From Candidatus Thorarchaeota archaeon (lineage in GTDB: Archaea > Asgardarchaeota > Thorarchaeia > Thorarchaeales > Thorarchaeaceae), in assembly GCA_013388835.1 (NCBI GenBank), contig JACAEL010000026.1:92780-156779 (forward strand): DNA of 64,000 bases. The letters run 5' to 3'. Below are positions 4,373 to 48,819 of this stretch, one piece after another (the first letter of the stretch is position 1; each line of letters opens with the position of its first letter). Position numbers and translations under genes: made by a program. A model generated the notes under the pieces. It saw nothing but the letters and a program-made list of their open reading frames with translations, ran no database searches and was not told the DNA's origin.

Positions 4373-7300
4373 TTGAGGTTGAGAACAAGCAGCACTCCTC
4401 TAGTACTCCCATGTCTACTACTCACTCTGCTGATGATTCTGCCAGTCGTCCCGACAATACCGAGCGGGGCTGAATCTCTTGCTCCTGTCACGGTGTTGGG
4501 GCCACCGACTGGACCGAGCATGCGAGCAGATTATCCTTACAACTACACGCATGTTGTCTGGGAACAGGGAACAAGAAGCGAGTCTTACAGCGACTCTTAC
4601 GCGTTCCAGGACTGGCAGTTTGGCCCCGCGATAAGATGGCAGATCAAGAATGCCACCACAGGGGCTTCCATAACAGTCATGGATACGCTAGTGATTGACG
4701 GTTGGTTCGACTTGGAGGTACAGACTCCAAAGGCCTCTCTGCGAGGGCAGCTGCCATACGCAGTCGGTGTCATGGGCACATACTTCAACGTGACAGAGAT
4801 GGCGACTGGGGAATTCTCATCAAATACCATCGCCATGATTGCGGTGTATATTGTGCCCCAGAACCGCTGGGAGTTCTACTCCTCATGGAATGCGACATGG
4901 GCAGAGCCTATCGAGTCCGGTGGTTTCAAGGAGAGTCCTGTCGAGGCGACTGACCTGCCCCCAGACTGGAGCTTTGAGGATGAGTTCGGTCCTGCAGTCA
5001 ACCCCTTCCTTGAGCAGGACAAGACTGCCAGTCAGTACTACATTGGTCCAGATGATGTCTGGACAAGCTTTCGGTTCAAGCTGAACGAAAGCTCACCACG
5101 AGGGGTCTTCAGCTTTGGAGCAATGGCACTAGACAGCAACCTGAATCCACTGGCCGAGAGCATAGCCACAGAAGAGAGCGCAAGGACCGTGGGCATGACG
5201 CTCCACGAGGTCTTGGCCGAAGCCACTGGTGGTTACTACGAGTTGAGCCGCCTTGATGATGACGGCAACACGGTCTACTCGGCGACTCGGGGCGTTGACT
5301 TCAATGTGACACTTCGAATTGGAGGTTTTAACCTCGACAATGCGACTGTCTTCTTCGAGCTGCCGTGGCAGGTCCTCCGAGAGGAGTTGGTCGAAGGTCC
5401 CTACCAAGAGCACATTCAACGAACCGGCGGATGGGTGTTTGACGTGAGCGCGGGCACCTATGTCTGGAACGCGTCTCTGGTGGTCGATACTGTTGAAGTC
5501 CGATATGGCCTTCATTGGGAGACGCATCCGGTGTACATCGATTCGGGAACAACGTACTCTGTCTGGGATGACGACCTCGGGCAATATGTGGATGTCTGGA
5601 CCCCTGGCTATGTCGCTCTGGTTTACTGGTTCGAGAACAACTCCTTCTCGACGATGTACGGATACATGGTTGATGGTTACAAGTGGGTTGTCGAAGGCCT
5701 AGACGCGCACCCTAACCTGCCGCTGTCGTTCATTCTTAACACAACCTCAAGCATACACTACTATGCTGATGGGCACGACTACGTGGTCTTCAGAGGACAC
5801 GTCAGTGAAGACATGTTGCCCACCGGCGGTGCTAGTTGGCAAGCAATGCATATGGATGTCCAAGTCCTGACAGAAGACGACAAGCGACTGATACCCTTCG
5901 CAAGCCTGCCATTTGCAGATGAGAGTGACATCGCAATGGATCAGATGCTGAGGGTACTCGCCGTAGAGAGTCCTGTTTCCGTTGTTGAGTTGACTCGGAA
6001 AGAGGAAGAGTATCGATCCAACTGGTTATTCGCAGTTGACAGAGGTGACACCTTCACAGTGCGCGCGCGACTCCAAGGCGGCGCCGATGTGGCCGGTGAG
6101 ATTGATGGTGTGGCGTTCGTGCTTAGCTCCTATGAGCATGAATGGGGGACTGACGCCTTCGGTGACTGGTCACAAGAAGAGTCCGTGGAGCTGTGGATTC
6201 GTGCTTCACCTGCAGGTCAGTTCGAAGTGAAGACCTACAACACTACGAGGAGGGTGTCCTATGAATATGGCACATACTGGGAGTGGCAGTACATTGAGGT
6301 CTTCGACGGCTTCTGGGACTGGCAACTTGTAGAGATCACCGGATATGGCTGGCATGAGAAGTGGTGGAACTTTACGTCGGGCACTTGGACTGACATACCT
6401 CTGTACAGATTCGCTCCTGAGACCGTGATGCCAGTGACATTTGCTGAGGCTGGGAACCTCACCTACGAGTTGGTTGGCAATGACCTTCGAGTCGCATTTG
6501 ATGTGACTGTTACCCAGTCGATGCCTGAGACCAGTTGGGACTGGCAGTTCTTCTATGGCGACCTTCAGATGGTGATTGACTACGAGTCTGGTTGGGGGTA
6601 CCATGAGCTCTTGGGTTGGAAGTACGACTTGGTATACAGCTACCAGGATGGCCCGGATCGCCTATATGCAGAACGGCCGTATCGCGGGCATACAATGCGG
6701 AACAATGACACAGACGAGCTTTACCATGCAGACTGGAGTGCCTACATATCCATCGGTGGCACGAATCACACTGTGAGAAAGTTCGTGGAGCAGTATCCGG
6801 ATGGTCTTGTCTATGAGCGTTTCATCTACGAGGAGTGGGACCCCACTGCGTACGACCCGTGGACTGGAGGTTATACAGGCAATTGGGTGCGGTACTACGT
6901 ATTGGATAACGGTACACGCATAGACGTTCTTGAAGGACACGAGTCCGAGATATACAATATCACCGTGCAGTCCGGAGAGTGGTTCCTAGCGCTTCACGAC
7001 GCACCTTGGGGGGTGCCCTATATGCCGGGTCTACAGAGGCTGATGCTGGCGAACGGAACGGTGCTGATAGAACCTGACGCCTATTGGGCAGGCTTCGGAG
7101 CTACCCCACTTGGCACTGTCCCCGTTGCGAAGATTGGACGTTACTCGCTGCTGAATGCTTCCATCTCCGTCTACTGGGCTGTGGACCCCGTTTGGATGGG
7201 TGACCACTATACATTCTATGTCAATGGTACCAATGCGCCGGTAGATGTGTGGTACGGTTATGCGCCCGATATCGATTTCGAGGGCTACTTCTACTTCAAC

Positions 7301-10300
7301 TCCACTGACGGCAGTACGTACTGGTTCCTCGACGGACTCTGGCCAGTCGACATCTATAGAGGAGAGCATGGAGGCAAGGCGGTCATCGCACCTGAAGCAC
7401 TTGCCTACTACTTTGCATATACTGACATCAGGGGAGTGAAGGATGAGCTACCGTATCCCGGTGCTGTGCTCTATGGGCCCGAAGACCTAGAGTATGTGAC
7501 CCCGGTGGCGCTCCAAGTACACATCAATGGTCACTACCGTCCAACATGGCAAGCGGGCAGTTACCACTACTTCAATGCGACAGAGGGTCTTGACTACTGG
7601 TATCAGTTCTATCATGCAGACGTCGAGGGTGTCATCTATAACCTCACGCTCTTTGGACTGAACCCGAACAGTCCGTGGAGTCCGACCTACGAATGGGACT
7701 TCCCATGGGTGACCACGGGCAATGGGACCCAACACTTCCCGTCCCTCGACTTTGCCGGATGGAGACTGGCTTACGGGCATCGTGATGCCCAGACCTACGA
7801 GTTTGTCATTGATGGCTTCCTTGAGTTGACGAGCGGCTACTACGATGACACGTACAGTGCTGACTTTCTGGTCTACAATGGCTCCTCAGGTCACTACGAG
7901 GCCAGGACAAGGGATGGGTGGGTGTTGGCCCTCAATGATACCACAGGCGAACTCACAAGCGTGCGAGGGTACTTCTACAATCTAACCTTCACGAACGGCA
8001 CCAGTGTGTACACATCGTATCCATACGTGAACGCGTATGAGGTCTATGACCCCGTCAGAGGCATGTATGACCTGGAGTGGTTATACACATGGGACCTCGA
8101 TGGAGACGTCGTCAGTTGGAGTCTCGAAGACACCTACACCACTCGCATCGTGCAAGTCACCATCATTGACATTGGTTCTGTCTACTACTTCGAAGTCGAA
8201 GGAGTACTCAGAGAGTGCCAGTCATACATGTTGGTAAGTCGGTGGGACTTCTCAGGCCAGTCTTGGATTGAGTTCAACATCCCAAGTCCGAATCTCGAGT
8301 ACCCAACACTGTTGTATGACGTTACCAATTCCAGCGTCGTGTATGAGGTGATGCCCATGTATGCCAACGAGATGACGGAAGTCAACTACACGTATCACAT
8401 TCCGGTCTTTCATGCGGGCCCAACCAACTTCACTGGCAATTGGGAGATGATCCACAGACTGTTCACTTTCTGGGGATACGGAATGAAGATGGACTATGTT
8501 CCTCTGCCAGTGACGGTCATTCGCAGTCAGTGGACGATAGTTGTCGGCGTCCCCAAGTTCGGTCTCTGGGGTATCCAGTCTTGGGCAATAGACTTGTCCA
8601 CTGGAGCGCTTGACCTTGACGGAGACCTCGGCACGACTGATGACCAGTACTATGTGCTCCACTCTTACGAGAGCACGGACACATACAGGGTGGATGAAGA
8701 GTACCTCCGAGTGCACATCAAGTGGGAGCCCAACTCCACTGTGTCTGGCGACGAGGTCTATGTGGACTCATACACAGGCCTCCGAACGGTCAATTGGAGC
8801 TACGACTGGGCAGACAACTTCTACTGGCGGAGAGCAGACACTGGAGAGCCACTCACTCCTGCAGAGTGGACGCAGGTCACTGACACAATCTATGACAGCC
8901 AAGGTATGCCAAGACCCGGCTACTGGGACATTGCTTTTCTCAGCAGGAACTTCACTTCCGATGACCTCAGGCAGCAGGCCGCTGAGGAGGGTTGGGACTG
9001 GGCCGCCAGTGAGTCGCAGGAGTGGAGCTGGATCTGGTGGGAGCTCTCTGAACACTACGTGACGGAGCTGCCAAATGCGACAGCTGTGTCTGTGACCGTC
9101 TCATATCAGTACGCGGGAGCGTTTGCGTGGAATGACACCAACCGCAACAACTACACAGACATAGACCCGATGAACATTGAGAGTTCAGAGGTCACACACT
9201 ACTGGCTTCCTGTGAGCGTGGACGATGTGTCATTTATCACCCCGAACGGTTCTCTGTCCGGTGACATTATGTGGTCGCTCGACGCCGCCGTGCCCTTTGG
9301 GGTCACATTCACCAATGTGACTGGTGCTGCGTTTCCCTTCGGAGACCGCTCTTACTGGGACTGGTACGCGCAGCAGCAGACTGGCAGCAACTTCGCAACA
9401 TTTGATGAGCGGCCGACACTGACTGAAGTCAGCAGTTTCGGCATCGGGGTGTCATTCACAGGCGAGGTGAGCGAACCGGACAACACGGCGTCTGTGAAGT
9501 TCAACATGACTGTTGGTGACTGGATGGTCGACGCACCCGGTGGGCGCAGCCTCCTGACCAACAGGTCTCTCGGACTGGCATTCTTCACCGACGTCGAGCT
9601 CTATTCGGAGACCGGTGAACCAATCCTGCCTCAGTACACAGACGACCTCGGCAATCCGTTGTTCAACAACGAGACCGTCGCGTCTGAGAACTTCACACTA
9701 TCGACCGGGTTGTCCAGCTACGGCTCGATGAACATGGGTGACTCACCCTATGTCTGGTCCAAGAACAGAAGTGCGACCTACACGCGGGTGAACTCCCAGA
9801 CTGTTCCGCTCAGTGTATTCGAGGCTGCCTACATATCGGACAGCGGTATCACTGCGACCTCTTTTGACATCTCATCCAGTCAGTTCTACACCCTTGTCAA
9901 CTTCAAGTGGTGGGACGGCTATGCAGTGTCTGTTGATCCGGTCTTCATCAGCTATGTCTCGGGACAAGGCGTCACAGACAATACAGCTCCGTCGATAAGC
10001 AACGTCGAGACAGAGGTGCTCTTCGTCAATGGAAAGGAGCGGCTCTACTACACTGTGACTGTGACCGACACAGGTGGATCGGGTCTGGCAAGCGTTCGCA
10101 TTGTGAATCTGGATGACCTTGGCAGCAATGTCTCGCTGACGTATCGCGGAGACATTCAGGCATGGGTCGGATATGTGGAGATGCAGGGGACCACTCCATA
10201 CACCTTCAACTCCACGATTGCTGCAGTTGACTATGCCAGCAACGAAGCAACCAGCGATGAGATTCACCACACGTTCTACAACGACCCCACACCACCCGAG

Positions 10301-11611
10301 ATCTCGAACGTGGGGAGTCAGTCAATTGGCCCACAGCAGAGCTATGTTCTGATCAGTGCCACGGTCATCGATGTGGGCGCTTCGGGAACCGACCATGTTG
10401 ACATCTATCTCGTTAACACGGAGCAGACGGTCTCCATGAGCTACAACGCGTCGATTGACAAGTGGCAGGCATATGTAGCTAGAACTAGCGGTTCTGCATA
10501 CACACTGGCTTACAGAGTGCTTGCGTATGACAGGGCTGGCAACCTGAAACAGAGTTCGCAGTTCACATATGCGTTCAAGGACGCCATCGCGCCGTCCGTG
10601 AGTGCAGTCAGTGCAGTCACCGTCTACCCGGCGGGCCAGGAAGCATTGTACGTTAGTGCCTCTGTGGGTGATACTGGTGGCTCAGGACTCGCGTCCGTAC
10701 AGCTGACCTACACGATAAGTGGTAACCCCACCACCGTGGCAATGAGCTACAATGCGTCCACTGCTCGGTACCAGCACACGGTTCCCAACCAAGCGCCGGG
10801 CACCTACGTGTTCTACACGATAACGGCGACTGACAATGCCGGCAACTCGTTCACGACGACGGAGCGTGTATACAGGTTCTCGACATCGGGGGACACTCCA
10901 CCCGGAATAGGTTCGCTAAACCTGAACCCACAGGAGCCCTCCTCTTCGCAGGCCGTCAACGTGTCGGTGACCATCCTAGATGAGGGGTCCATTCTGAATG
11001 CAACCCTCTACTACAGGGTAAACGGAGGGCCCTATACTGGCCTTGCAATGACCCACACCGGTGATGTCTACTCTGCAGTCATTCCTGCGCAGCCACACGG
11101 CTCTATCGTGGAGTGCTATGTTGTCGCCTTCGACAATCTGGAGCAGAGGTCGGAGTCATCGGTCACTTCCTACACTGTCAACGACGATGTGACTGCTCCT
11201 GTCATAACCGGCCTGAGCATAGACAAGTCGACAGTCACTTCTGCGGACTCTGTCGTTGTGAGTGCAACAATAACCGATGATGTTGCGGTCAAGAATGCAA
11301 CCCTGTACTACAAAGTGGGGACGGGCAGCTGGATTGCAGTGGTGATGACACATGTGGGAGATGTGTACAGTGCCACAATCCCGCCACAGGCTGATGGCTC
11401 TGTGGTGACCTACTATGTCCGCGCATACGACACATCGGACAGACACAGCGACTCGGCTGAGCAGTCCTACACCGTACAGGACGCAACAGGAACTACGACG
11501 ACATCTCCGGTGTCACCTCTGCCAGAGATGACCATCATAGTTGTCCTGGGTGGTGCCGGCGCCGCAGTGGTCGCGATTCTACTAGTGCTCCGGTTGCGAA
11601 AGAAGAACTAG
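4373..11611 (+). CDS. Giant secreted surface protein A (2412 aa). N-terminal signal peptide, very W/Y-rich body with dense N-x-S/T sequons, five C-terminal ~100-aa beta-sandwich repeats, then a C-terminal TM helix and basic tail.
   Basis: The N-terminus MRLRTSSTPLVLPCLLLTLLMILPVVPTIPSGAES is a signal peptide beginning at a TTG start. The C-terminus ...IIVVLGGAGAAVVAILLVLRLRKKN* is a single TM helix with a basic tail. Many NxT/NxS sequons are present. It shares several conserved blocks with the downstream paralog: ALDLDGDLGTTDDQYYV, GMPRPGYWDIAF, FDERPT, DPVFISYVSG. Stop is TAG. Confidence 0.9.
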   Translation: MRLRTSSTPLVLPCLLLTLLMILPVVPTIPSGAESLAPVTVLGPPTGPSMRADYPYNYTHVVWEQGTRSESYSDSYAFQDWQFGPAIRWQIKNATTGASITVMDTLVIDGWFDLEVQTPKASLRGQLPYAVGVMGTYFNVTEMATGEFSSNTIAMIAVYIVPQNRWEFYSSWNATWAEPIESGGFKESPVEATDLPPDWSFEDEFGPAVNPFLEQDKTASQYYIGPDDVWTSFRFKLNESSPRGVFSFGAMALDSNLNPLAESIATEESARTVGMTLHEVLAEATGGYYELSRLDDDGNTVYSATRGVDFNVTLRIGGFNLDNATVFFELPWQVLREELVEGPYQEHIQRTGGWVFDVSAGTYVWNASLVVDTVEVRYGLHWETHPVYIDSGTTYSVWDDDLGQYVDVWTPGYVALVYWFENNSFSTMYGYMVDGYKWVVEGLDAHPNLPLSFILNTTSSIHYYADGHDYVVFRGHVSEDMLPTGGASWQAMHMDVQVLTEDDKRLIPFASLPFADESDIAMDQMLRVLAVESPVSVVELTRKEEEYRSNWLFAVDRGDTFTVRARLQGGADVAGEIDGVAFVLSSYEHEWGTDAFGDWSQEESVELWIRASPAGQFEVKTYNTTRRVSYEYGTYWEWQYIEVFDGFWDWQLVEITGYGWHEKWWNFTSGTWTDIPLYRFAPETVMPVTFAEAGNLTYELVGNDLRVAFDVTVTQSMPETSWDWQFFYGDLQMVIDYESGWGYHELLGWKYDLVYSYQDGPDRLYAERPYRGHTMRNNDTDELYHADWSAYISIGGTNHTVRKFVEQYPDGLVYERFIYEEWDPTAYDPWTGGYTGNWVRYYVLDNGTRIDVLEGHESEIYNITVQSGEWFLALHDAPWGVPYMPGLQRLMLANGTVLIEPDAYWAGFGATPLGTVPVAKIGRYSLLNASISVYWAVDPVWMGDHYTFYVNGTNAPVDVWYGYAPDIDFEGYFYFNSTDGSTYWFLDGLWPVDIYRGEHGGKAVIAPEALAYYFAYTDIRGVKDELPYPGAVLYGPEDLEYVTPVALQVHINGHYRPTWQAGSYHYFNATEGLDYWYQFYHADVEGVIYNLTLFGLNPNSPWSPTYEWDFPWVTTGNGTQHFPSLDFAGWRLAYGHRDAQTYEFVIDGFLELTSGYYDDTYSADFLVYNGSSGHYEARTRDGWVLALNDTTGELTSVRGYFYNLTFTNGTSVYTSYPYVNAYEVYDPVRGMYDLEWLYTWDLDGDVVSWSLEDTYTTRIVQVTIIDIGSVYYFEVEGVLRECQSYMLVSRWDFSGQSWIEFNIPSPNLEYPTLLYDVTNSSVVYEVMPMYANEMTEVNYTYHIPVFHAGPTNFTGNWEMIHRLFTFWGYGMKMDYVPLPVTVIRSQWTIVVGVPKFGLWGIQSWAIDLSTGALDLDGDLGTTDDQYYVLHSYESTDTYRVDEEYLRVHIKWEPNSTVSGDEVYVDSYTGLRTVNWSYDWADNFYWRRADTGEPLTPAEWTQVTDTIYDSQGMPRPGYWDIAFLSRNFTSDDLRQQAAEEGWDWAASESQEWSWIWWELSEHYVTELPNATAVSVTVSYQYAGAFAWNDTNRNNYTDIDPMNIESSEVTHYWLPVSVDDVSFITPNGSLSGDIMWSLDAAVPFGVTFTNVTGAAFPFGDRSYWDWYAQQQTGSNFATFDERPTLTEVSSFGIGVSFTGEVSEPDNTASVKFNMTVGDWMVDAPGGRSLLTNRSLGLAFFTDVELYSETGEPILPQYTDDLGNPLFNNETVASENFTLSTGLSSYGSMNMGDSPYVWSKNRSATYTRVNSQTVPLSVFEAAYISDSGITATSFDISSSQFYTLVNFKWWDGYAVSVDPVFISYVSGQGVTDNTAPSISNVETEVLFVNGKERLYYTVTVTDTGGSGLASVRIVNLDDLGSNVSLTYRGDIQAWVGYVEMQGTTPYTFNSTIAAVDYASNEATSDEIHHTFYNDPTPPEISNVGSQSIGPQQSYVLISATVIDVGASGTDHVDIYLVNTEQTVSMSYNASIDKWQAYVARTSGSAYTLAYRVLAYDRAGNLKQSSQFTYAFKDAIAPSVSAVSAVTVYPAGQEALYVSASVGDTGGSGLASVQLTYTISGNPTTVAMSYNASTARYQHTVPNQAPGTYVFYTITATDNAGNSFTTTERVYRFSTSGDTPPGIGSLNLNPQEPSSSQAVNVSVTILDEGSILNATLYYRVNGGPYTGLAMTHTGDVYSAVIPAQPHGSIVECYVVAFDNLEQRSESSVTSYTVNDDVTAPVITGLSIDKSTVTSADSVVVSATITDDVAVKNATLYYKVGTGSWIAVVMTHVGDVYSATIPPQADGSVVTYYVRAYDTSDRHSDSAEQSYTVQDATGTTTTSPVSPLPEMTIIVVLGGAGAAVVAILLVLRLRKKN

Positions 11612-41292: not shown

Positions 41293-42294
41293 CTACATTT
41301 TCTTGGCAATGATGGAGACCAAGTCTGCAAGTCTCTGCGAGTAACCTGCTTCGTTGTCGTACCAAGCCATGACCTTTGCCATGTTGCCAACCACGAAGGT
41401 AGAGAGCGAATCGTAGATGCAAGAGTGAGTATTGCCTATGAAGTCCGAGGAGACGAGTTCCTCGTCAATGTACTGCACAATTCCCTTCATCTTTCCGTCG
41501 GCAGCCCTCTTGAAGGCGTCGTTAACGCTCTGCACCGTGACCTCCTTCTCGAGGTCCACCACTAGGTCCACAAGGGACACGTCCATTACCGGAACGCGGA
41601 TAGCAAGTCCGTCCAGTTTGCCCTTCGCCTTCGGATAGACAAGACCTATCGCCTTTGCTGCTCCCGTCGTCGTGGGCACGATGTTCCAGCATGCAGCCCT
41701 AGCTCTCCTCAGGTCACTGTGCTGCATGTCAAGTATCCGCTGGTCGTTGGTGACAGCGTGTATCGTGGTCATGAGACCGCGCTGGATACCGAATGCCTAA
41801 TCCATTATCTTGACCATAGGAGCCAAGCAGTTTGTCGTGCAAGAGGCGTTGGAGATCATGTGATGCTCTGCAGGTCGGTAGTCGGCATCATTGACACCAA
41901 TGACGACCGTAAACATCTCCCCCTTTGCAGGAGCGCTGAGAACCACCTTCTTTGCCCCAGCAGTGAGGTGCTTCTTGCAGTCCTCGGCCCCACGAAAGAC
42001 CCCCGTCGACTCCACCACTATGTCAACGCCCAAGTCCTTCCACGGCAGCTTTGTGGCATCGCGTTCCATCAGTGCCTTGATCTTCCTTCCGTCAACGACA
42101 ATCTCCCCGGCACCATGAGTCACCGAGCCGTTGAATGTGCCCATCACCGTGTCATACTTGAAGAGGTGGGCCAGTGTCTTTGCATCAGCAAGGTCGTTGA
42201 GTGCAACGACCTCGTACTCCTTCTTTCCAAGCGCAGATCGAAGGAAAAGACGGCCTATTCGACCGAACCCGTTGATTGCCACTCTAACAGTCAT
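41293..42294 (-). pseudogene. gap: Bacterial-type (class I) glyceraldehyde-3-phosphate dehydrogenase gapA, interrupted by a single in-frame TAG at ~41797-41799.
   Basis: The N-terminal half VAINGFGRIGR...SNASCTTNCLAPMVKIMD ends in TAG (TGA is not used here). The same frame then continues AFGIQRGLMTTIHAVTNDQ...RRARAAC.NIVPTTTGAAKAIGLV...WYDNEAGYS. The TAG aligns with a variable D/E/K residue of the conserved KV(I)ND-x-FGI linker. No frameshift and no other lesion is present. Confidence 0.75.
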
Positions 42295-42661
42295 TTGTCA
42301 CTCCACCGAGGCCTCAAGAGACCTGAGGGAGTCGCCGTCAGCTCGGCTATATATCTTCCGAAATCCCGACTCCCTTAGACAGCCGAACGACTCCAGACGA
42401 TAGTGCAGTGTTGGCGATTGGTGAGGTGACTTGCGACTCTCAGTCCGAGGAAGTGACTAGATAGGGCAGTGGTTCGCCAAACTGATGCTCAGGACAGAAC
42501 GAGCCCATGACGGGTGAGTGAGAGTGGCGACAATCAATGTGGGCGAACAGACGGACCCGGTCACTGTCTGGCACGCCCGCAGGCTGCCAGGGGGGATTCG
42601 TCATGGTGCCCTTGGTGGTCGATGCACATTTGTGAACTGTTATTAATGAGGGAGCAGAGAG

Positions 42662-42841
42662 ATGACGAGTGACTCGGGAGGTCACAATATGGGTGATCAT
42701 AGCAACCACATGTGCGACTACTCAAAGCATCACAGCGTCGAAGAGATGAGAGTCCGGGTGAAGGACCCGAAGTGGATCTGTGAGGTCTGCGGACGGACTG
42801 CAAACAACAAAGAGTACCTCTGCAGGCCCGTAGCGCTGTGA
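42662..42841 (+). CDS. Candidate small Cys/His-rich protein (59 aa), below the ORF-track length cutoff.
   Basis: GAGGGA precedes the ATG. Translation is MTSDSGGHNMGDHSNHMCDYSKHHSVEEMRVRVKDPKWICEVCGRTANNKEYLCRPVAL*. It has four Cys including a CxxC, and a His-rich N-terminus. The overlapping antisense ORFs are R/S-rich and look non-coding. Confidence 0.3.
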   Translation: MTSDSGGHNMGDHSNHMCDYSKHHSVEEMRVRVKDPKWICEVCGRTANNKEYLCRPVAL

Positions 42842-42923
42842 ACCAAGAATGGTGGAGAGGTGTCCTCGGAATCCGAAACACCTCTCACCTACTATTCGTA
42901 GACTACTTGCATATCAGCAGAGG

Positions 42924-44525
42924 TCATGGCAGTGGCGGGGTGATTATGCAGTCCTTCTCCCACTCCACCTCAAAGCCATATTCCACTTGGAGTTCCTTTC
43001 CAGGGTCTATTGTGGCTTCCCACTCGAGTACTCCCATCTCGAACTTCTTCTCCGGAAGCGAAGGGGGTGGTTGCAGAGTGACTGTTATCTTCTCGGAGCC
43101 ACTGTAAGGAATCCTATCAACAATGCGAATCTCAGCAGGGTTCTTCGAGAAGTTCTTCAGTTCAAGCCTGTACTTGTAGGCCCGCTTCTTCTTCCCCTTG
43201 GTGATGCCCGCCTTCTCGGTGTCCTTCAGAGCCAGCTTCTTCTCCGCCTTGATGTCATATGCAGTCCGGGTCCCGATTCTGATCTTCTCACGCGGGGCCA
43301 CGAGATTGATGTGGGTCTCGCCGATGAAGTCACCGTTTGCATAGACCCTCACCTTCCCTGGGAGCATCACCGAGTCGCCGTTTGTCACCTCGTCCTGAGC
43401 TACCACTTCCGACATCGCATAGGCGTTCCAGTAGTATAACACCCTTGACACGAAGGTCTCCTCGGTCAGAGTCACTGGATGAGGCTCCCTTCCGGACTCG
43501 ATAGTCACACGACCTGGGACCGCGTAGATGACTGTGCCACCCAGTGATTCGGAGACCGCGGCGAATGACTCCTCGATTTCCGTGGCACTCGTTTCCTGCT
43601 CTTCAGCACGCTCGTACTCGTATGCACCAGCCTCTTCCTTTGCTCCCGACTGAGGCTCCGCCATCCTCTTTCGGTCTCTAAGGGCAAAGGCCTTTGGTAG
43701 CTGTCGCGCCGCCCTCAGCACGTCCACATAGAGTGGTTGGGCCTTCACTGCCTCTACTCGTGTTGCCGAGGCAGTAGACACAGTGAGGGACACATCGTCC
43801 CAGTCCTCGAGCGTGTTGTTCCAGACTGTCGCGATTCTCTTCACACGCGAGGACTTCTCAGACGTGTCAATGTCGTACATTGGTGTCCATCCTGACTGTC
43901 CCAGCTGGTATGTGACCTCAAGCTCGAGGTCCGTCGCACTGCTCGCATTCACTGTGATACTAACATCGGTCAGAGTCTCTGTGCGCCTCTCTCCTTGGAC
44001 TCGGTTCAGGTTCTGCTCGGTCGCCTGAATCGCAGAGGTGACCTCTCTCAACTCCCTCGACAGGTCTCTCAGTCTCTTCTTTGCGTCACGTAGTATCGCC
44101 GTTGTCGCCTTGTCCATCTCAGACAGGTTGTCCATCTTAGACTCTCCAGCAGCATACCATTTGCCGAACTCGGAGGAGAACTGGAGTGACATTGAAGATG
44201 CCCTCTTGACACGTGCTTGCTGTTGCGCGATTGCGTCGTTGATGTCATCTCTTCTGCGCTGCAGTTTGAGGAGTTGGTCTCGCAGCGTCTTGAGTTCTCC
44301 CTCTGGTTCATATGTCCTACTCACATGTTTGACGTCAATACCACGCAGGACTGCATTGCCCTTGCCCTTCACTCTGAACGAGTTCTCTTCAGCATATGCG
44401 CTGATGCCCGAGACCATCAGAATCTGCTCGCCCTCTACTAGCTTTGCCTTTCCCCTCCTTGTGATCCTAGCACCGTCTCTGAAGACCGTGACCTCAGATA
44501 TTCTTGTCTCAATGTTCTGTGTCAA
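42924..44525 (-). CDS. DUF4140/DUF4139-family protein (MuiA-like conserved hypothetical), paralog 1 (533 aa).
   Basis: The N-terminal block ISEVTVFRDGARITRRGKAKLVEGEQILMVSGISAYAEENSFRVKG matches DUF4140. A central coiled coil follows. The C-terminal blocks LEVTYQLGQSGWTPMYDID...EDWDDVSLTVSTASA and VIYAVPGRVTIESGREPHPVTL...GKVRVYANGDFIGETHINLVAPREK match DUF4139. Confidence 0.7.
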   Translation of the reverse strand: MTQNIETRISEVTVFRDGARITRRGKAKLVEGEQILMVSGISAYAEENSFRVKGKGNAVLRGIDVKHVSRTYEPEGELKTLRDQLLKLQRRRDDINDAIAQQQARVKRASSMSLQFSSEFGKWYAAGESKMDNLSEMDKATTAILRDAKKRLRDLSRELREVTSAIQATEQNLNRVQGERRTETLTDVSITVNASSATDLELEVTYQLGQSGWTPMYDIDTSEKSSRVKRIATVWNNTLEDWDDVSLTVSTASATRVEAVKAQPLYVDVLRAARQLPKAFALRDRKRMAEPQSGAKEEAGAYEYERAEEQETSATEIEESFAAVSESLGGTVIYAVPGRVTIESGREPHPVTLTEETFVSRVLYYWNAYAMSEVVAQDEVTNGDSVMLPGKVRVYANGDFIGETHINLVAPREKIRIGTRTAYDIKAEKKLALKDTEKAGITKGKKKRAYKYRLELKNFSKNPAEIRIVDRIPYSGSEKITVTLQPPPSLPEKKFEMGVLEWEATIDPGKELQVEYGFEVEWEKDCIITPPLP

Positions 44526-44539
44526 TACTCACTCATCTC

Positions 44540-46135
44540 CTATACCAGCGGCGGACTGACTGTCACGCCCTTCTCCCAGAATACCTCGTAGCTGTACTCG
44601 ATTGTCTCCTTCTTTCCGATGTCGATGGTCTTCTTCCACTGCATGACTCCAAGTTCATACTTCTCAAGACCTAGCCTCTCCCAGTCGACCTTCACTTCAA
44701 TTGCCGGGTTCAAGCTGTGCGGGACCCGGTCAAAGACTTCTATCTCTATGGGCCGCTTGGAGAAGTTCTCCAGTTCGAGTCGGTAGGTGTAAGACCTTCT
44801 CAGCTTGCCTCGTGTTATCCCCGTCTTCTCAACCTCTCTCGACACCATCTTCTTCTTCGCCTTCACGTCATATGCGAGTCGAGTGCCCATCTTGAACTCC
44901 TCGCGTGGCGATACGAGGGGCATCAAGGACTCTCCGATGTAGTCCCCCTCGGCATACACTTTCACCTTGCCGGGAAGGATCACGCTATCGTTGTTTGTCA
45001 CTAGGTCCTGTGCCACGACCTCGGACATCCCGTCTGCATACCAGTAATGTATGGTCTTGGTGGCTAGCTCCTCCTCTACGAGCGTCACCGGATGGCGGTC
45101 ATCGTCACACGGTATGGTGACAGGCTTCGGGAGCTCGTATACTGACACTCCCGATGCGGCCTCCGATACCTCCGCGAACTCCTCTAGCATCGGCGGCGCG
45201 GGCGGTGGTCGGGCTGCTTCGACTTTGAGTGACGGAGCTGCTATCGGCATGGTCTCCCCTGGCATGGAGGGTGGCATGCCGCCGCCGGTCATGCTCCGAC
45301 TTGGACGTGGAGGTGGAGGAGAGTAGACGTCGATTATGAGTGGAGTGGGCTCGACTGCCTCTACAGGCTGTGCTGTCGCGGATGAGACAACCAGCCCCAC
45401 TCGCTCCCACGGTTCCATCGTCTGGTTGGTCACCATGGCCACCCGTCGTATCTTTGCCTTTGTTGGAAGGAGGTCCACGTCATAGGTAGGAATCCATCCT
45501 GCCTCGTCGCACTGGTACGACACTTCGAGCTCAACTTCGGCTCTCTGAGAGACCTCCAGATTCACCTCGACGTTGTAGGAGACCTTCGTTCGTCTCTGGT
45601 ACTCGTCACGACCAAGGTTCTGTCGTACTACATTCATCTGGTCCTCCAACTCACGCATCTCTCTCTCAATGTCTCTGAGCTTTGACCTTGTCTCCGCAAT
45701 CATCTTCCCCGAGGTCTTGTCCATCTCTGTCAGAGCGGTGATGTCCCCCTCGTTCGCGGCAAACACCATGCCAAAGGTGCCTGCAAACTCGTTGTTCATC
45801 GCTTCGAGTTGGCTCAGTCTGGCTGTGTGGAGTTCGTGGTCGTCCTTGAGCTGCTGATACTGGTCTTGGAGACGCTCGAGTTGGTCCCGGAGTGCCTGAA
45901 TGTCCCCTACGGGTTCATAGACTTCGGTGTGGCGCTTGACATCAATACTTGAGAGTGATGCAGGTCCTCGTCCCTTCACCCTGAAGCTGTCCTCATGTGC
46001 ATACTCGGTTATCCCCATGATCAGTACCTTCTGAGGTCCCGCTTCAAGGGTCCGTTTGCCTACGCGCGTCACGCGGGCTCCATCCCTGAAGACAGTGACA
46101 CGCTTGATCTTCGTTTCCATTTCAGTCAAAGGCAA
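44540..46135 (-). CDS. DUF4140/DUF4139-family protein, paralog 2 (531 aa), with a Pro/Gly-rich linker.
   Basis: Collinear with paralog 1 (KRVTVFRDGARVTRVGKRTLEAG...FRVKGRG; LEVSYQCDEAGWIPTYDVD...EPWERVGLVVSSATA; GKVKVYAEGDYIGESLMPLVSPREE). It lies 14 nt upstream of paralog 1 on the same strand. Confidence 0.7.
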   Translation of the reverse strand: MPLTEMETKIKRVTVFRDGARVTRVGKRTLEAGPQKVLIMGITEYAHEDSFRVKGRGPASLSSIDVKRHTEVYEPVGDIQALRDQLERLQDQYQQLKDDHELHTARLSQLEAMNNEFAGTFGMVFAANEGDITALTEMDKTSGKMIAETRSKLRDIEREMRELEDQMNVVRQNLGRDEYQRRTKVSYNVEVNLEVSQRAEVELEVSYQCDEAGWIPTYDVDLLPTKAKIRRVAMVTNQTMEPWERVGLVVSSATAQPVEAVEPTPLIIDVYSPPPPRPSRSMTGGGMPPSMPGETMPIAAPSLKVEAARPPPAPPMLEEFAEVSEAASGVSVYELPKPVTIPCDDDRHPVTLVEEELATKTIHYWYADGMSEVVAQDLVTNNDSVILPGKVKVYAEGDYIGESLMPLVSPREEFKMGTRLAYDVKAKKKMVSREVEKTGITRGKLRRSYTYRLELENFSKRPIEIEVFDRVPHSLNPAIEVKVDWERLGLEKYELGVMQWKKTIDIGKKETIEYSYEVFWEKGVTVSPPLV

Positions 46136-46369
46136 TCTCCGGTCCTTTCGGTATTCATGTGAGCTTTTATTCTTTCACCATGACAGTCTCTGTTGCGGAA
46201 ACCAGGTCCGGAGTGAGCAGACGCGCCGGCATTACCAGATTCGCATCGAGTATTGAGACTGAGAACCGTCCCCTGCGTCAGTCTCAGCCATGCGATAATG
46301 GTCATGACGACTTATGAAACAGGGTCGTGTGCAGATGAAGACGCCCGAACGCTTTCCAGTCTGCATCCT

Positions 46370-46912
46370 CTATGCACGGCGAGCTCTCTGAACAAGGGCG
46401 ATGAGCAGGAACATGAGCAACAGAATGACACCGGTGGAGAGCAGGATCCACTTGATGGCGGTGAAGGAAGCGGACAGCAATACGTTGGCCTCTGCCACAG
46501 CAGGATATGAGTGGATCATCATTGCGATTGCTATGTTCTCAAGGTAGTCGAAGAACGCTGCCAGTAGGGACAAGAGCGCCAAGACGCGATAGCGGACAAG
46601 GTATTCGATGCCATTTGCCAACCGAAGCGTCATCAGGCAGAATGCCAGGCCATATGCAGCTGGAAAGACCGAGTCGAGGAGCTGCAGCTGCCCGTAGAGT
46701 GACAGTCCTTCTGGTCCCAGAGCACCGAAGAGCTGAGTCATCTCGTCATAACTGTAGAATAGCCTCATGTCAAGTATGGGCAGTCCTCCTGACAACCCGA
46801 CTATTCCGGGTACGAGGAACATCATCGCAGCTCCTGTGACTAGCGCGATGATAGTCACGACATACAGAACGTACGTCCGAGCCCAGTGATCCAGAGATCG
46901 AATCAGACGCAT
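46370..46912 (-). CDS. Hypothetical membrane protein (~180 aa).
   Basis: Four to five hydrophobic helices. The start was chosen at the internal Met (MRLIRSLDHWARTYVLYVVTIIALV); the ORF-track start at 46996 adds an unlikely non-hydrophobic leader. Confidence 0.45.
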   Translation of the reverse strand: MRLIRSLDHWARTYVLYVVTIIALVTGAAMMFLVPGIVGLSGGLPILDMRLFYSYDEMTQLFGALGPEGLSLYGQLQLLDSVFPAAYGLAFCLMTLRLANGIEYLVRYRVLALLSLLAAFFDYLENIAIAMMIHSYPAVAEANVLLSASFTAIKWILLSTGVILLLMFLLIALVQRARRA

Positions 46913-46996
46913 GGCTCTCTCGTTCTCGTCCAGACTACATCTCCTGCTTAAAACGATGACTGGGAGATCGTAACGGATGCACACAGTCAGAGACAT

Positions 46997-47274
46997 GCCC
47001 TTGATTGTGCCGGAAAAGTGCCTTTCATCATAAGTATGATATCCATTAGTATATCCTTTATGCTCTATATCGCTCTTACAGGACGGAATATACCCAGATT
47101 GTGTATTAAATCGTATTCCATTGCATTATGGACGTCAGTGGATATATGAGTGTGTAATGTGGCGATGCAAATCCCATAAGTGCGCTCGTGCCTAAGTCAT
47201 TGACAGGCTGCGGACACAACGGAGCAGATCTCAAGGCACACCTGAAGTATCACGAGCTAAGGAGCAACTCGCAC
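46997..47274 (+). promoter_or_regulatory. AT-rich intergenic region upstream of the GH3 gene, with TATA-like elements (candidate archaeal promoter).
   Basis: Local AT content is much higher than the window average (…TATATCCTTTATGCTCTATATCGC…TGTATTAAATCG…GGATATATGAG…). AAGGAG lies 12 nt before the ATG at 47275. Confidence 0.3.
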
Positions 47275-48819
47275 ATGACGATGCTAAAACGACTGGTCAA
47301 GATGGTTGCCGAGAAGAAGGCACACGCTATCGACAAGATGCTCGAGCATCAACAGGAAGTGATGGAGTCAAAGCTGACGTCCATACTCCGAAGGCACCAT
47401 GACACAGTCTATGGAAGAAAGTATGGGTTCGAATCTATCAGAACCGCCGAGCAGTATGCTGAGCGGGTTCCACTGGTTGACGCTGAGAAGCTCAGGCCCT
47501 ATTTCGGAATGACTTATGTGGACCCGAAGGGGGGAATACTCACCAAGGACCCTGTGATATGGTACCTGCAGACCTCCGGGACAACAGGACACCCGAAGCG
47601 AGTACCCATAACCCGCCCCGGTCTGAAGGACTCGTCCAGAGGCTCTGCCATGACATGGATGTCATTCATAAACGCGGAGGAGGAGAACGCAGACATCCTG
47701 GACGGGACACTTGTGACTTTCGGTGCTGCATCAGTGCTCGATTGGGTGAACGGAATACCGGTGGGTTATGCGACGGGTGTCTATGCTCGCCACCAGAACC
47801 GGCTATTCCAGAGGCTCATCAAGCCGGGTGAGGACATCTTCAACATAACTGACATGGACACAAAGATGAGGGCCTATGCTCGGATTCTTGCGACCGAGAA
47901 CGTGACAGGACTTCAGGGTATCACGACGCTTTCGCTATCTCTGATCAGACGGATGCAGGACCAGTATGGACCTTGGCTTGCAGAAGAGCTCAGCAATTCC
48001 GAAGGCAGGAACAGGATTCTAGCATCTCTTGACGATGAGGGTCGACTTGATGTCAGTCAGCTCTGGCCTAATCTGAGGCTCTTTCTGGCCAGCGGAATCG
48101 ACACCACTCCCTACAAGGTCTGGATGACGAAGACCTTTCCCAACCTGAGCGTTGTCGAGATTTATGGTGCATCAGAGGGTGTCTTTGCTGGTCAGCTTCT
48201 GGAACCCCAAGAAGGGATGCAGCTGTTTGCAAACACGCACTACTTCGAGTTCATTCGAGAGAATGACGCCAACGAACCCAACCCTGCTGTGATTCCTCTC
48301 TCCGAGGTCAAGGTCGGAAGCAGGTATGAGATTGTCCTAACTAACATTCAGGGCTACTACAGATATCGCTTGGGGGACGTAATGACCTTCACGTCCACTG
48401 ATCCCTATTCTGTGAGCCGGATATCAAGAAGGGGAAAGGTGGTGAACCTGTCAGGTGAGAAGGTGTCTGATGCGCATGCGTCGATTGCGATGAGTGAGGC
48501 CTGTCGGAGGACGGGTGCACAGGTGGTTGACTACACCCTGTTAGGAGTGATAGAGAATGGGATTGGCCACTACACAATCGCTGCGCTGTTCCGAGACGAC
48601 TCAGTAGACTCCATAGAGTTTGTCCAGACCTTTGAGGAGTCCATGATGAGCATAAACCCAGAGTTCAGGGTGGTGAGAGAGGTTGGTGCACTGGGCCCAA
48701 CCGTGCTGAAGAGGCTTAAGGTACCGTACTTCGATGAGGTTGTCAAGCAGAGCCACCTGCAGGCAAAGCCTCATTGTCTGACGACCAGCAAGGACGTACT
48801 CTCGCTATGCGAGTCGTGA
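47275..48819 (+). CDS. GH3-family adenylate-forming enzyme (GH3 auxin-responsive-promoter superfamily, PF03321-like acyl-acid amido synthetase).
   Basis: YLQTSGTTGHPKRVPIT matches the GH3 SSGTSxGxxKxxP adenylation motif. YGASEG matches the GH3 Y-x-S-SE motif. Length and C-terminal domain fit the GH3 family. The start at MTMLKRLVKM is preceded by AAGGAG; the ORF track extends it to 47188. Stop TGA. Confidence 0.7.
   Translation: MTMLKRLVKMVAEKKAHAIDKMLEHQQEVMESKLTSILRRHHDTVYGRKYGFESIRTAEQYAERVPLVDAEKLRPYFGMTYVDPKGGILTKDPVIWYLQTSGTTGHPKRVPITRPGLKDSSRGSAMTWMSFINAEEENADILDGTLVTFGAASVLDWVNGIPVGYATGVYARHQNRLFQRLIKPGEDIFNITDMDTKMRAYARILATENVTGLQGITTLSLSLIRRMQDQYGPWLAEELSNSEGRNRILASLDDEGRLDVSQLWPNLRLFLASGIDTTPYKVWMTKTFPNLSVVEIYGASEGVFAGQLLEPQEGMQLFANTHYFEFIRENDANEPNPAVIPLSEVKVGSRYEIVLTNIQGYYRYRLGDVMTFTSTDPYSVSRISRRGKVVNLSGEKVSDAHASIAMSEACRRTGAQVVDYTLLGVIENGIGHYTIAALFRDDSVDSIEFVQTFEESMMSINPEFRVVREVGALGPTVLKRLKVPYFDEVVKQSHLQAKPHCLTTSKDVLSLCES

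Follow-up and report, generated by a model that had tools for sequence, protein, structure and literature searches.

Background and closest described systems

The two genes described here, which we call paralog A (upstream) and paralog B (downstream), belong to the TIGR02231/MuiA family, a large group in which we counted 8048 representatives of 50%-identity clusters at E <= 1e-3. The DUF4139 family ranges over bacteria and archaea and, according to papers that mention DUF4139, also eukaryotes. The family's name goes back to a phenotype seen on overexpression in one bacterium and does not denote a biochemical activity. In Pseudomonas aeruginosa, the ECF sigma factor SbrI drives muiA, which is induced by envelope stress, and the review that describes this states that the role of MuiA needs to be re-evaluated (PMC10418997). 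The literature on DUF4139, DUF4140, TIGR02231, and MuiA, archaea included, yielded nothing more than lists and, in one review, a paragraph about Pseudomonas MuiA. It revealed no biochemical function, and the original prediction's statement that the function of the family is unknown is fair for the literature searched.

Homologs of A and B are also present in other Asgard lineages, namely, Helarchaeota (P0251), Freyrarchaeota (P0311), Odinarchaeota (P0290), and Promethearchaeota (P0258). These proteins match A and B in length and architecture and likewise have no N-terminal leader, but they are single-copy (as in Hel-, Freyr-, and Odinarchaeota) and encoded by lone genes with unrelated neighbors. 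They further differ from A and B in that most carry a bipolar loop within one chain, with a basic first half and an acidic second half, as in P0251 (+7 and -6, respectively). We found no functional partner conserved across the Asgard phyla, the neighbors of the single-copy homologs being mutually unrelated.

A tandem pair of full-length family members

We analyzed a window of 64,000 nucleotides from a Thorarchaeota MAG, in which A and B are encoded back to back on the minus strand:

44540..46135, minus strand: paralog A, the upstream gene, 531 aa from the first TTG, stop codon TAG (ORF, Pfam, TIGR02231)
42924..44525, minus strand: paralog B, the downstream gene, 533 aa, TTG start, TGA stop (ORF, Pfam, TIGR02231, AF2)
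44526..44541, minus strand: A-B junction, a 14-nt spacer with the Shine-Dalgarno-like motif GGAGATGA, as read from the sequence

Both proteins are full-length members of the TIGR02231/MuiA family (DUF4140 plus DUF4139). Against a curated TIGR02231 cutoff of 112.6 bits, A reaches 231.7 bits (its residues 9-526 covering model positions 1-523) and B 280.9 bits (its residues 8-526 covering positions 1-521), so both matches run end to end. The N-terminal DUF4140 domain (PF13600, gathering cutoff 27) is found at 79.2 bits in A and 70.8 bits in B, and the C-terminal DUF4139 domain (PF13598, gathering cutoff 31.8) at 112.3 and 141.2 bits. These scans place the membership originally predicted above cutoff in both proteins. 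The two ORFs of 531 and 533 aa also agree with the predicted tandem paralogs of about 530 aa set 14 nt apart; BLAST aligns them at 43% identity over 528 residues with 3 gaps (E = 2e-154). Identity to bacterial members of the family is only ~25-30%.

Both A and B start with TTG. An alternative second TTG of A at 46129 would give 529 aa, the length annotated publicly for P0001, and is the likelier start, as its Shine-Dalgarno spacing is better than that of the first TTG. P0001 (529 aa) is a Thorarchaeota protein 100% identical to A, and another public protein, P0121, is 100% identical to B. The gap between the genes (44526..44539) holds most of the GGAGATGA motif (44540..44533), which overlaps the last base of the TAG stop of A and lies 7 nt ahead of the TTG of B. 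In gene-called relatives, the spacer measures 7-14 nt. A spacer this short leaves no room for a promoter, which argues for co-transcription of A and B and probably for coupled translation.

Architecture and predicted structure

The domain order of A and B is that of the family, including a variable loop inside DUF4139. The pair stands apart from the family at large in lacking a leader and being presumably cytoplasmic, in existing as an obligatory A/B pair that combines a basic, Pro-rich loop with an acidic one, and in its Asgard host. In an AF2 model of B (pLDDT 88.6), residues 1-72 form a beta domain and 77-125/131-178 an antiparallel helical hairpin; beta strands occupy 181-250 and 323-523, with a disordered stretch between them at 274-309 (pLDDT < 50). 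The model bears out the predicted layout of a beta domain, a long coiled coil, and DUF4139. The hairpins map as follows:

45599..45904, minus strand: antiparallel helical (coiled-coil) hairpin of A, residues ~78-179, from the BLAST alignment to B
43992..44297, minus strand: antiparallel helical hairpin of B, residues 77-178, from the AF2 model

Strands 181-210 vanish when B is modeled without its N terminus, indicating that the hairpin is inserted within the N-terminal beta domain. The A hairpin gives weak, generic coiled-coil matches to SMC and ASRP. Together with the lack of any fold match to a cytoskeletal protein, these generic matches give no backing to the suggested cytoskeletal role.

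Neither A nor B has a signal peptide, a transmembrane segment, or a hydrophobic N terminus, and the maximum 19-residue Kyte-Doolittle hydropathy is 0.89 for A and 0.97 for B. With no such segment and maxima below 1.0, the envelope association that had also been suggested finds no support. N-terminal leaders are present in ~26 of the 150 nearest family representatives (roughly a sixth). The same absence of a signal peptide speaks against A or B being a functional ortholog of P. aeruginosa MuiA, an exported protein induced by envelope stress that inhibits alginate production.

Searches of the PDB by sequence, whether from B alone or from a 102-sequence profile, returned only coiled-coil noise (best E = 0.029) and no solved structure for any relative of A or B. 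Foldseek against the PDB likewise produced no match at E <= 1e-3 and no solved structure resembling the beta core. The best overall Foldseek analogues, all nonsignificant, are MacA, HlyD, and EmrA, which like A and B have a long antiparallel alpha-hairpin in a beta domain followed by further beta domains. Unlike these proteins, A and B have no membrane anchor, no out-and-back topology through all domains, and no match to their sequence families, and the resemblance is at most an analogy. Possible distant counterparts among known systems are the beta-sandwich modules found in PIG-T/GPI16, in OST1 (ribophorin I), and, as the mu-homology domain, in AP-2 mu2.

The disordered loops of A and B

The difference between the paralogs predicted at the outset was a proline/glycine-rich linker in A that is absent from B. 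Both proteins, however, carry a loop at the same position:

45185..45325, minus strand: disordered loop of A, residues 271-317, YSPPPPRPSRSMTGGGMPPSMPGETMPIAAPSLKVEAARPPPAPPML, Pro/Gly-rich, net charge +2
43575..43718, minus strand: disordered loop of B, residues 270-317, 48 residues, LRAARQLPKAFALRDRKRMAEPQSGAKEEAGAYEYERAEEQETSATEI, from AF2 pLDDT

The BLAST alignment of A and B passes through both loops nearly gap-free. The linker is therefore not an insert missing from B, which has its own loop of ~50 aa, but the predicted divergence stands insofar as the composition of the two loops differs. The A loop retains the group-A motif PPPAPP just ahead of a conserved EEFAE and is the second most P+G-rich among 120 A orthologs. 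The B loop is basic in its first half (+5) and acidic in its second (-7).

Across 120 orthologs of each type, the A loops are basic and proline-rich as a group. PPP occurs in the loop of 105/120 A orthologs versus 0/120 B orthologs, and a basic cluster in 111/120 versus 10/120; every B loop (120/120) is net negative. In the window's own pair, the basic patch has shifted from the A loop to the B loop.

Conservation and age of the pair

Both genes are present in 55 of 64 loci from GTDB species representatives of Thorarchaeota, always in the order A to B on one strand, and the remaining 9 loci are interrupted by contig ends. The comparison of gene neighborhoods proposed with the original prediction thus reveals an invariant order wherever both genes are visible. 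The 120 A-type and 120 B-type orthologs split cleanly, with 55-65% identity among members of the same group and 43-50% across groups, and the deep-branching pairs L070 and L071 occupy basal positions in the A and B clades. Two clean ortholog groups indicate that the duplication is older than the class. Outside the loop, A and B show fixed differences at only 17 columns; most are conservative changes, with no clustering in the hairpin. With so few fixed differences, no paralog-specific interface stands out.

Charge compensation between the loops

The loop charges of A and B evolve in a compensating way. Over 43 genome pairs, the net charge of the A loop is anticorrelated with that of the B loop (r = -0.71, p = 7e-8), and the relationship persists after independent (phylogenetic) contrasts (r = -0.69, p = 3e-7); none of 2000 tip shuffles reached it. 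Five charge controls (loop versus rest and rest versus rest) were not significant. The summed charge of the two loops has a variance of 4.8, compared to 14.4 expected for independent loops, and the K/R counts of the two loops trade off against each other (r = -0.63). These loops are a clean example of coevolution between two disordered regions, and they offer a concrete, testable handle on a key part of the protein and on its mode of assembly.

Gene neighborhood

A membrane protein gene precedes A in the same direction:

46370..46996, minus strand: upstream co-directional neighbor, a 208-aa polytopic membrane protein with no Pfam match

In 8 other Thorarchaeota loci, a member of this membrane protein family immediately precedes A, and in 22 others a membrane histidine kinase takes that position. 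We ruled out that the 208-aa protein is a truncated kinase sensor domain, as it has no similarity to the kinase N terminus. The window lacks both the histidine kinase and the M20 peptidase that border the pair in sister genomes, and no sigma or anti-sigma gene lies next to A and B.

A proposed two-subunit complex and its alternatives

We propose, at roughly even odds, that A and B are two subunits of one soluble cytoplasmic complex between which an ancestral bipolar loop was split. The hetero-oligomer originally predicted draws real, though indirect, support from the A-to-B order in 55 loci, the Shine-Dalgarno-like motif over the stop codon of A, and the compensating loop charges. Family membership, architecture, loop disorder, conserved synteny, duplication age, and charge compensation are demonstrated; physical contact between A and B, its stoichiometry, and the purpose of the complex are inferred. 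Co-transcription and probable translational coupling would help to keep the two proteins at matched levels. The subunits would each consist of an N-terminal beta domain with a projecting helical hairpin of perhaps 70 Å (estimated from ~48 residues per helix) and a DUF4139 beta-sandwich core from which a disordered loop of ~50 residues would emerge. Following a duplication that we place in an ancestor of the Thorarchaeota lineage, A would have retained mainly the basic, proline-rich part of the loop and B the acidic part, and selection may at present act on the combined charge of both. The two loops would probably lie close together in the assembled complex, where they could form an electrostatic pair (a latch) or a joint docking surface, leaving the PPAPPP motif and basic patch of A open to a partner. 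Our guess is that the complex serves as a scaffold or regulatory module tied to membrane or stress signaling, given the membrane protein or sensor kinase gene directly upstream and the induction of Pseudomonas MuiA by envelope stress.

Alternatively, A and B could be independent paralogs that form their own homo-oligomers in subfunctionalized roles and remain adjacent through a shared promoter, the charge trade-off then reflecting a third partner shared by both or a limit on their total charge rather than contact between A and B. Their near-equivalence outside the loops, with mostly conservative changes at the 17 fixed columns, fits such independence, as does the fact that single-copy homologs work alone in other Asgard lineages. 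However, neither gene order nor spacing varies across the 55 assessable loci, and the compensation is specific to the loops, with flat controls. Such compensation would be odd for proteins that never meet, so independence is hard to reconcile with the data, and we consider it unlikely, at perhaps one chance in a handful. Far less probable is a role as membrane-fusion-style adaptors whose alpha-hairpins bridge or regulate a MacB/FtsX-type ABC permease. The hairpin within a beta domain invites the comparison, but membership among membrane-fusion or periplasmic adaptors fails for want of any HlyD or biotin-lipoyl-like Pfam match and of a significant fold match beyond the hairpin. A prefoldin-like holdase, with the beta domains as a hub and the coiled-coil hairpins as client-holding tentacles, is a poor candidate as well: the likeness is limited to a generic antiparallel coiled coil, the topology is inverted (beta domains flank the helical hairpin in A and B, whereas helices flank a beta hairpin in prefoldin), the large DUF4139 beta core has no prefoldin counterpart, and the absence of a prefoldin Pfam match also speaks against membership.

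The public label "mucoidy inhibitor MuiA family protein" would make A and B equivalents of P. aeruginosa MuiA, that is, envelope-stress proteins that work outside the cytoplasm and dampen a stress or exopolysaccharide pathway, which we regard as very improbable. To our knowledge, archaea, including the Asgard host, lack the AlgU/alginate system. The absence of signal peptides and transmembrane segments from A and B, set against leaders in about a sixth of the nearest representatives, and the low identity to bacterial members also weigh against equivalence. TIGR02231 membership, the control of P. aeruginosa muiA by SbrI under envelope stress, and the membrane sensor kinase directly upstream of A in 22 sister loci do favor it, although the role of MuiA is itself in need of re-evaluation (PMC10418997).

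Returning to the two-subunit complex, the Thorarchaeota pair can be seen as a natural experiment in which a protein encoded by a single gene elsewhere in the Asgard lineages examined appears to have become a two-subunit one; its bipolar disordered loop was apparently divided between two copies, and the charge compensation between them can still be measured. If the complex is a true scaffold in Asgard archaea, it would have implications for the cell biology of the archaea most closely related to eukaryotes. If it is not, the annotation is still improved, as "mucoidy inhibitor" is misleading for an archaeon. A bolder extension, to which we give little credence, is a Thorarchaeota-wide cytoplasmic assembly in which the oppositely charged loops act as a tunable electrostatic latch for higher-order assembly or partner recruitment, the conserved PPAPPP motif and basic patch of A dock a proline-recognition protein or an anionic membrane, the adjacent sensor kinase perhaps exerts control, and the DUF4139 core is perhaps distant kin of mu-homology domains, ribophorin I, and PIG-T. 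Such a latch with eukaryote-like beta-sandwich kinship, if true, would be a new structural system in the archaeal relatives of eukaryotes.

Other features of the locus

Rfam and tRNA scans of the locus returned nothing. Searches with PADLOC and PHROGs gave only coiled-coil noise (LmuB, E = 2e-3, 15 bits; one PHROG of unknown function, E = 3e-3), with no meaningful match to a known anti-phage defense system or phage protein. A putative promoter precedes A:

46164..46176, minus strand: candidate archaeal promoter of A, GAAAGA followed by a TATA-like ATAAAAG, proposed from inspection of the letters

This candidate, whose GAAAGA part is purine-rich, lies ~32 nt 5' of the first TTG of A. In some genomes, a MacB/FtsX-type ABC permease is divergently encoded near the pair.

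Tandem MuiA family paralogs

The two paralogs, A (upstream) and B (downstream), lie 14 nt apart on the minus strand of the window, and each carries a loop at the same place in the protein.

46135..44540, minus: A, an ORF of 531 aa
45185..45325, minus: Pro/Gly-rich loop of A, residues 271-317
44525..42924, minus: B, an ORF of 533 aa
43575..43718, minus: loop of B, 48 residues

Pfam places DUF4140 at the N-terminus and DUF4139 across the C-terminal 320 residues of both proteins, well over gathering scores. TIGR02231, a full-length NCBIfam model (“mucoidy inhibitor MuiA family protein”), scores A at 232 bits and B at 281 bits against a cutoff of 112.6, and the two proteins can be aligned over their whole length, 43% identical and with three gaps. 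A and B are bona fide TIGR02231 members, and these matches confirm the original prediction of tandem DUF4140/DUF4139 paralogs. Both genes are already annotated in public metagenome-assembled genomes (MAGs), their closest database proteins, which come from a Candidatus Thorarchaeota MAG, being 100% identical.

Both ORFs begin with TTG. A second TTG of A, six bases downstream at 46129 and with GGAG seven bases ahead of it, gives the 529-aa A of the public annotation. About 32 nt ahead of A, a purine-rich stretch and then ATAAAAG make up a plausible candidate for an archaeal promoter, as read from the sequence. The motif GGAGATGA before B overlaps the final base of the A stop codon (TAG) and ends seven bases ahead of the B TTG; from this overlap and spacing, the pair looks co-transcribed and translationally coupled.

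The family is named after MuiA of Pseudomonas aeruginosa, which is transcribed under the control of SbrI, an envelope-stress sigma factor, and whose overproduction lowers alginate promoter activity; the review describing this considers the role to need re-evaluation (PMC10418997). A search for hydrophobic segments found none in A or B (maximum 19-residue hydropathy, 0.89 and 0.97, respectively), indicating that both are soluble, leaderless proteins, whereas leaders occur in about a sixth of the 150 nearest representatives of the family. Archaea are also not known to have an AlgU/alginate system, so “mucoidy inhibitor” should not be taken as the function of A and B.

An old duplication retained across Thorarchaeota

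Searching with A and with B gave separate sets of 120 best matches, forming two clean groups with identities of 55-65% inside a group and 43-50% across groups. Scanning a single genome for each GTDB species recovered 64 loci from Thorarchaeota. Both genes are visible in 55 of these, every time on the same strand and in the order A then B, and the other 9 lose one gene to a contig end; no other arrangement occurs among the 64. The spacer between A and B in gene-called relatives is 7-14 nt. In a neighbor-joining tree, A and B form one monophyletic clade each, the two members of each deep-branching pair (L070, and L071 with proteins P0244 and P0241) join the A clade and the B clade at their bases, and the Helarchaeota and Promethearchaeota homologs fall outside both. 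Homologs with checked gene context are single genes in Helarchaeota, Freyrarchaeota, and Odinarchaeota. The tree, the single-gene relatives, and the constant gene order together indicate a duplication that is old, specific to the Thorarchaeota lineage, and kept at every locus that could be judged.

On a 916-kb contig of a related MAG (L013, 7042..8651), A is split into three overlapping ORFs beside an intact B. The split could stem from assembly frameshifts or from decay of the A copy, and L013 is the sole possible exception to both genes being intact among the loci examined.

Divergence and compensation of the two loops

The original prediction described a Pro/Gly-rich linker in A that was absent from B. 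The linker is present in A, but B carries a counterpart in a nearly gapless alignment, and what distinguishes the two is composition, in keeping with the predicted linker divergence. A-type loops are basic and proline-rich (mean net charge, +3.1; n = 120), with a cluster of at least four K/R per eight residues in 111 of 120 and a typical PPAPPP end right before a conserved EEFAE. B-type loops are net negative in all 120 cases (mean, −8.3), and PPP occurs in 105/120 A-type loops versus 0/120 B-type loops. Pairwise identity is 46% among A loops and 32% among B loops versus about 64% elsewhere in the protein; the loops change faster than the remaining protein, yet not randomly. Only 17 alignment columns outside the loops hold fixed A-versus-B differences, mostly conservative, and the loop is the main feature telling the paralogs apart.

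Most single-copy relatives in other Asgard lineages and bacteria carry a bipolar loop on one chain, basic then acidic, with halves of +7/−6 in a Helarchaeota protein and +8/−10 in database protein P0273. We compared the A and B loops of the same locus across 43 nonredundant genomes and found their net charges to be strongly anticorrelated (Pearson r = −0.71, p = 7e-8). The relationship persists when Felsenstein independent contrasts are taken over a tree of the nonloop columns (r = −0.69, p = 3e-7, 42 contrasts), and 0 of 2000 tip shuffles reached the observed correlation. The variance of the summed loop charge is 4.8, versus 14.4 expected under independence, and the basic residue counts of the two loops trade off (r = −0.63). 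None of five charge controls was significant: these set the A loop against the nonloop part of B, the B loop against the nonloop part of A, each loop against the remainder of its own chain, and the two nonloop parts against each other. The window is an extreme case of this trade-off: its A loop has lost most basic residues (net +2) and is the second most P+G-rich of 120, and its B loop has gained a basic first half (+5) before an acidic second half (−7).

These patterns are most simply read as an ancestral bipolar loop that was divided between the two copies, with selection now acting on both loops as one unit. Such selection would require the loops to operate together, most simply inside one heteromeric complex. 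A common third partner would account for the compensation too. The predicted hetero-oligomer thereby gains indirect backing from loop charge, which such a shared partner would also explain; the cytoskeletal role and envelope association proposed alongside it found no support.

The pair belongs to a known, uncharacterized family. The literature searched describes neither its obligate A/B pairing across Thorarchaeota, nor the division of a bipolar loop into one basic/proline-rich and one acidic half, nor the compensatory evolution of these halves.

Predicted structure

An AlphaFold2 model of B, built from a 102-sequence alignment (mean pLDDT, 88.6), contains the following features.

Residues 1-72: beta domain
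Residues 77-125 and 131-178: antiparallel hairpin of two helices, about 48 residues each
Residues 181-250: beta strands
Residues 274-309: unstructured segment, pLDDT < 50
Residues 323-523: beta-rich region

Removing residues 1-180 loses strands 181-210 from the prediction, which suggests that these strands belong to the N-terminal domain, completing it, and that the hairpin is inserted inside this domain. A PDB sequence search with the family profile gave no match, and a Foldseek search with the B model returned nothing at E ≤ 1e-3. The best, nonsignificant analogues were the MacA, HlyD, and EmrA adaptors and the mu-homology domain of AP-2, with values in the range of generic beta-sandwich similarity, so no homology is claimed; the modeled fold tells very little about function. 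No recognizable catalytic motif occurs in the columns invariant across both paralogs, which is more in line with a role in binding or scaffolding than with enzymatic activity.

Tested for membership, A and B fall outside both the membrane-fusion adaptors and prefoldin. With the former they share only a hairpin inserted in a beta domain, and with the latter only an antiparallel coiled coil and the presence of two related kinds of subunit.

Gene neighborhood

Neighborhood comparison across archaea, as originally suggested, recovered the A-then-B order in 55/55 judged Thorarchaeota loci. No conserved partner gene emerges from the neighborhoods compared. The gene upstream on the same strand encodes a membrane histidine kinase in 22 distinct sister loci; in 8 loci and in the window, it encodes a 208-aa polytopic membrane protein. 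In most sister loci reaching far enough, the pair is followed by an M20 peptidase gene on the other strand, with a conserved 50-aa cysteine-containing ORF past it in at least 10. Farther upstream, 12 distinct loci encode a MacB/FtsX-type permease on the opposite strand. Single-copy homologs of other phyla have unrelated neighbors. This context gives a weak hint of a membrane-protein or signaling link.

The kinase, about 410 aa long, is encoded 70-90 nt ahead of A (L001 6663..7922, L002 6668..7912, L003 3566..4789, and 19 more loci) and has a multipass membrane N-terminus, an H-box-like LLxHDLxND motif, and a HATPase_c domain. Deep-branching L070 has a receiver-domain gene divergently upstream. 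The MacB_PCD/FtsX-type ABC permease (about 820-860 aa) is divergent from the pair (L002 3855..6446, minus; L071 544..2997, minus; 10 more loci). MacA, the best though nonsignificant Foldseek analogue of B, is the adaptor of MacB; the adjacency may be coincidence.

The kinase, peptidase, and permease are all absent from the window, which keeps the small ORF and, downstream, the consecutive genes for GAPDH, an amidohydrolase, and an MFS transporter. Loss of the peptidase with these genes retained (42295..42923, compared with L001-L071) suggests a local deletion or rearrangement in the window's lineage.

Other features of the window

42689..42841, plus: small ORF, 50 aa (59 aa from 42662), MGDHSNHMCDYSKHHSVEEMRVRVKDPKWICEVCGRTANNKEYLCRPVAL
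41293..42294, minus: type-I GAPDH, just downstream of B
47188..48819, plus: GH3-family (acyl-acid amido synthetase-like) gene
4373..11611, plus: giant ORF, 2412 aa
11957..17776, plus: giant ORF, 1939 aa
57455..63862, minus: giant ORF, 2135 aa

The small ORF is convergent with B in the 629-nt B-GAPDH gap, behind GGAGG. It is 62-72% identical to ORFs just past the M20 peptidase in 10 related loci and matches Prok-RING_2 faintly (E = 0.008); it is probably a genuine unannotated protein, predicted to bind zinc. The GAPDH gene has one in-frame TAG at codon 166 (41797..41799; …APMVKIMD*AFGIQRGLMTT…), with the frame unchanged on either side and Thr at this position in the L002 ortholog. Because TAG is the commonest ordinary stop in the window (19/33 long ORFs), a sequencing or assembly error, population variant, or recent pseudogene seems more likely than recoding.

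The GH3 gene, with N-terminal, middle, and C-terminal GH3 domains, belongs to a family known best from plants and is divergent from the cluster formed by the membrane gene, A, and B. The three giant ORFs probably encode large surface or adhesion proteins. The 1939-aa ORF has no Pfam match whatsoever, and the 2135-aa ORF contains Big_1, Big_3_5, Filamin, and MG2/MG4-type Ig-like repeats and a prenyltransferase-like toroid region.
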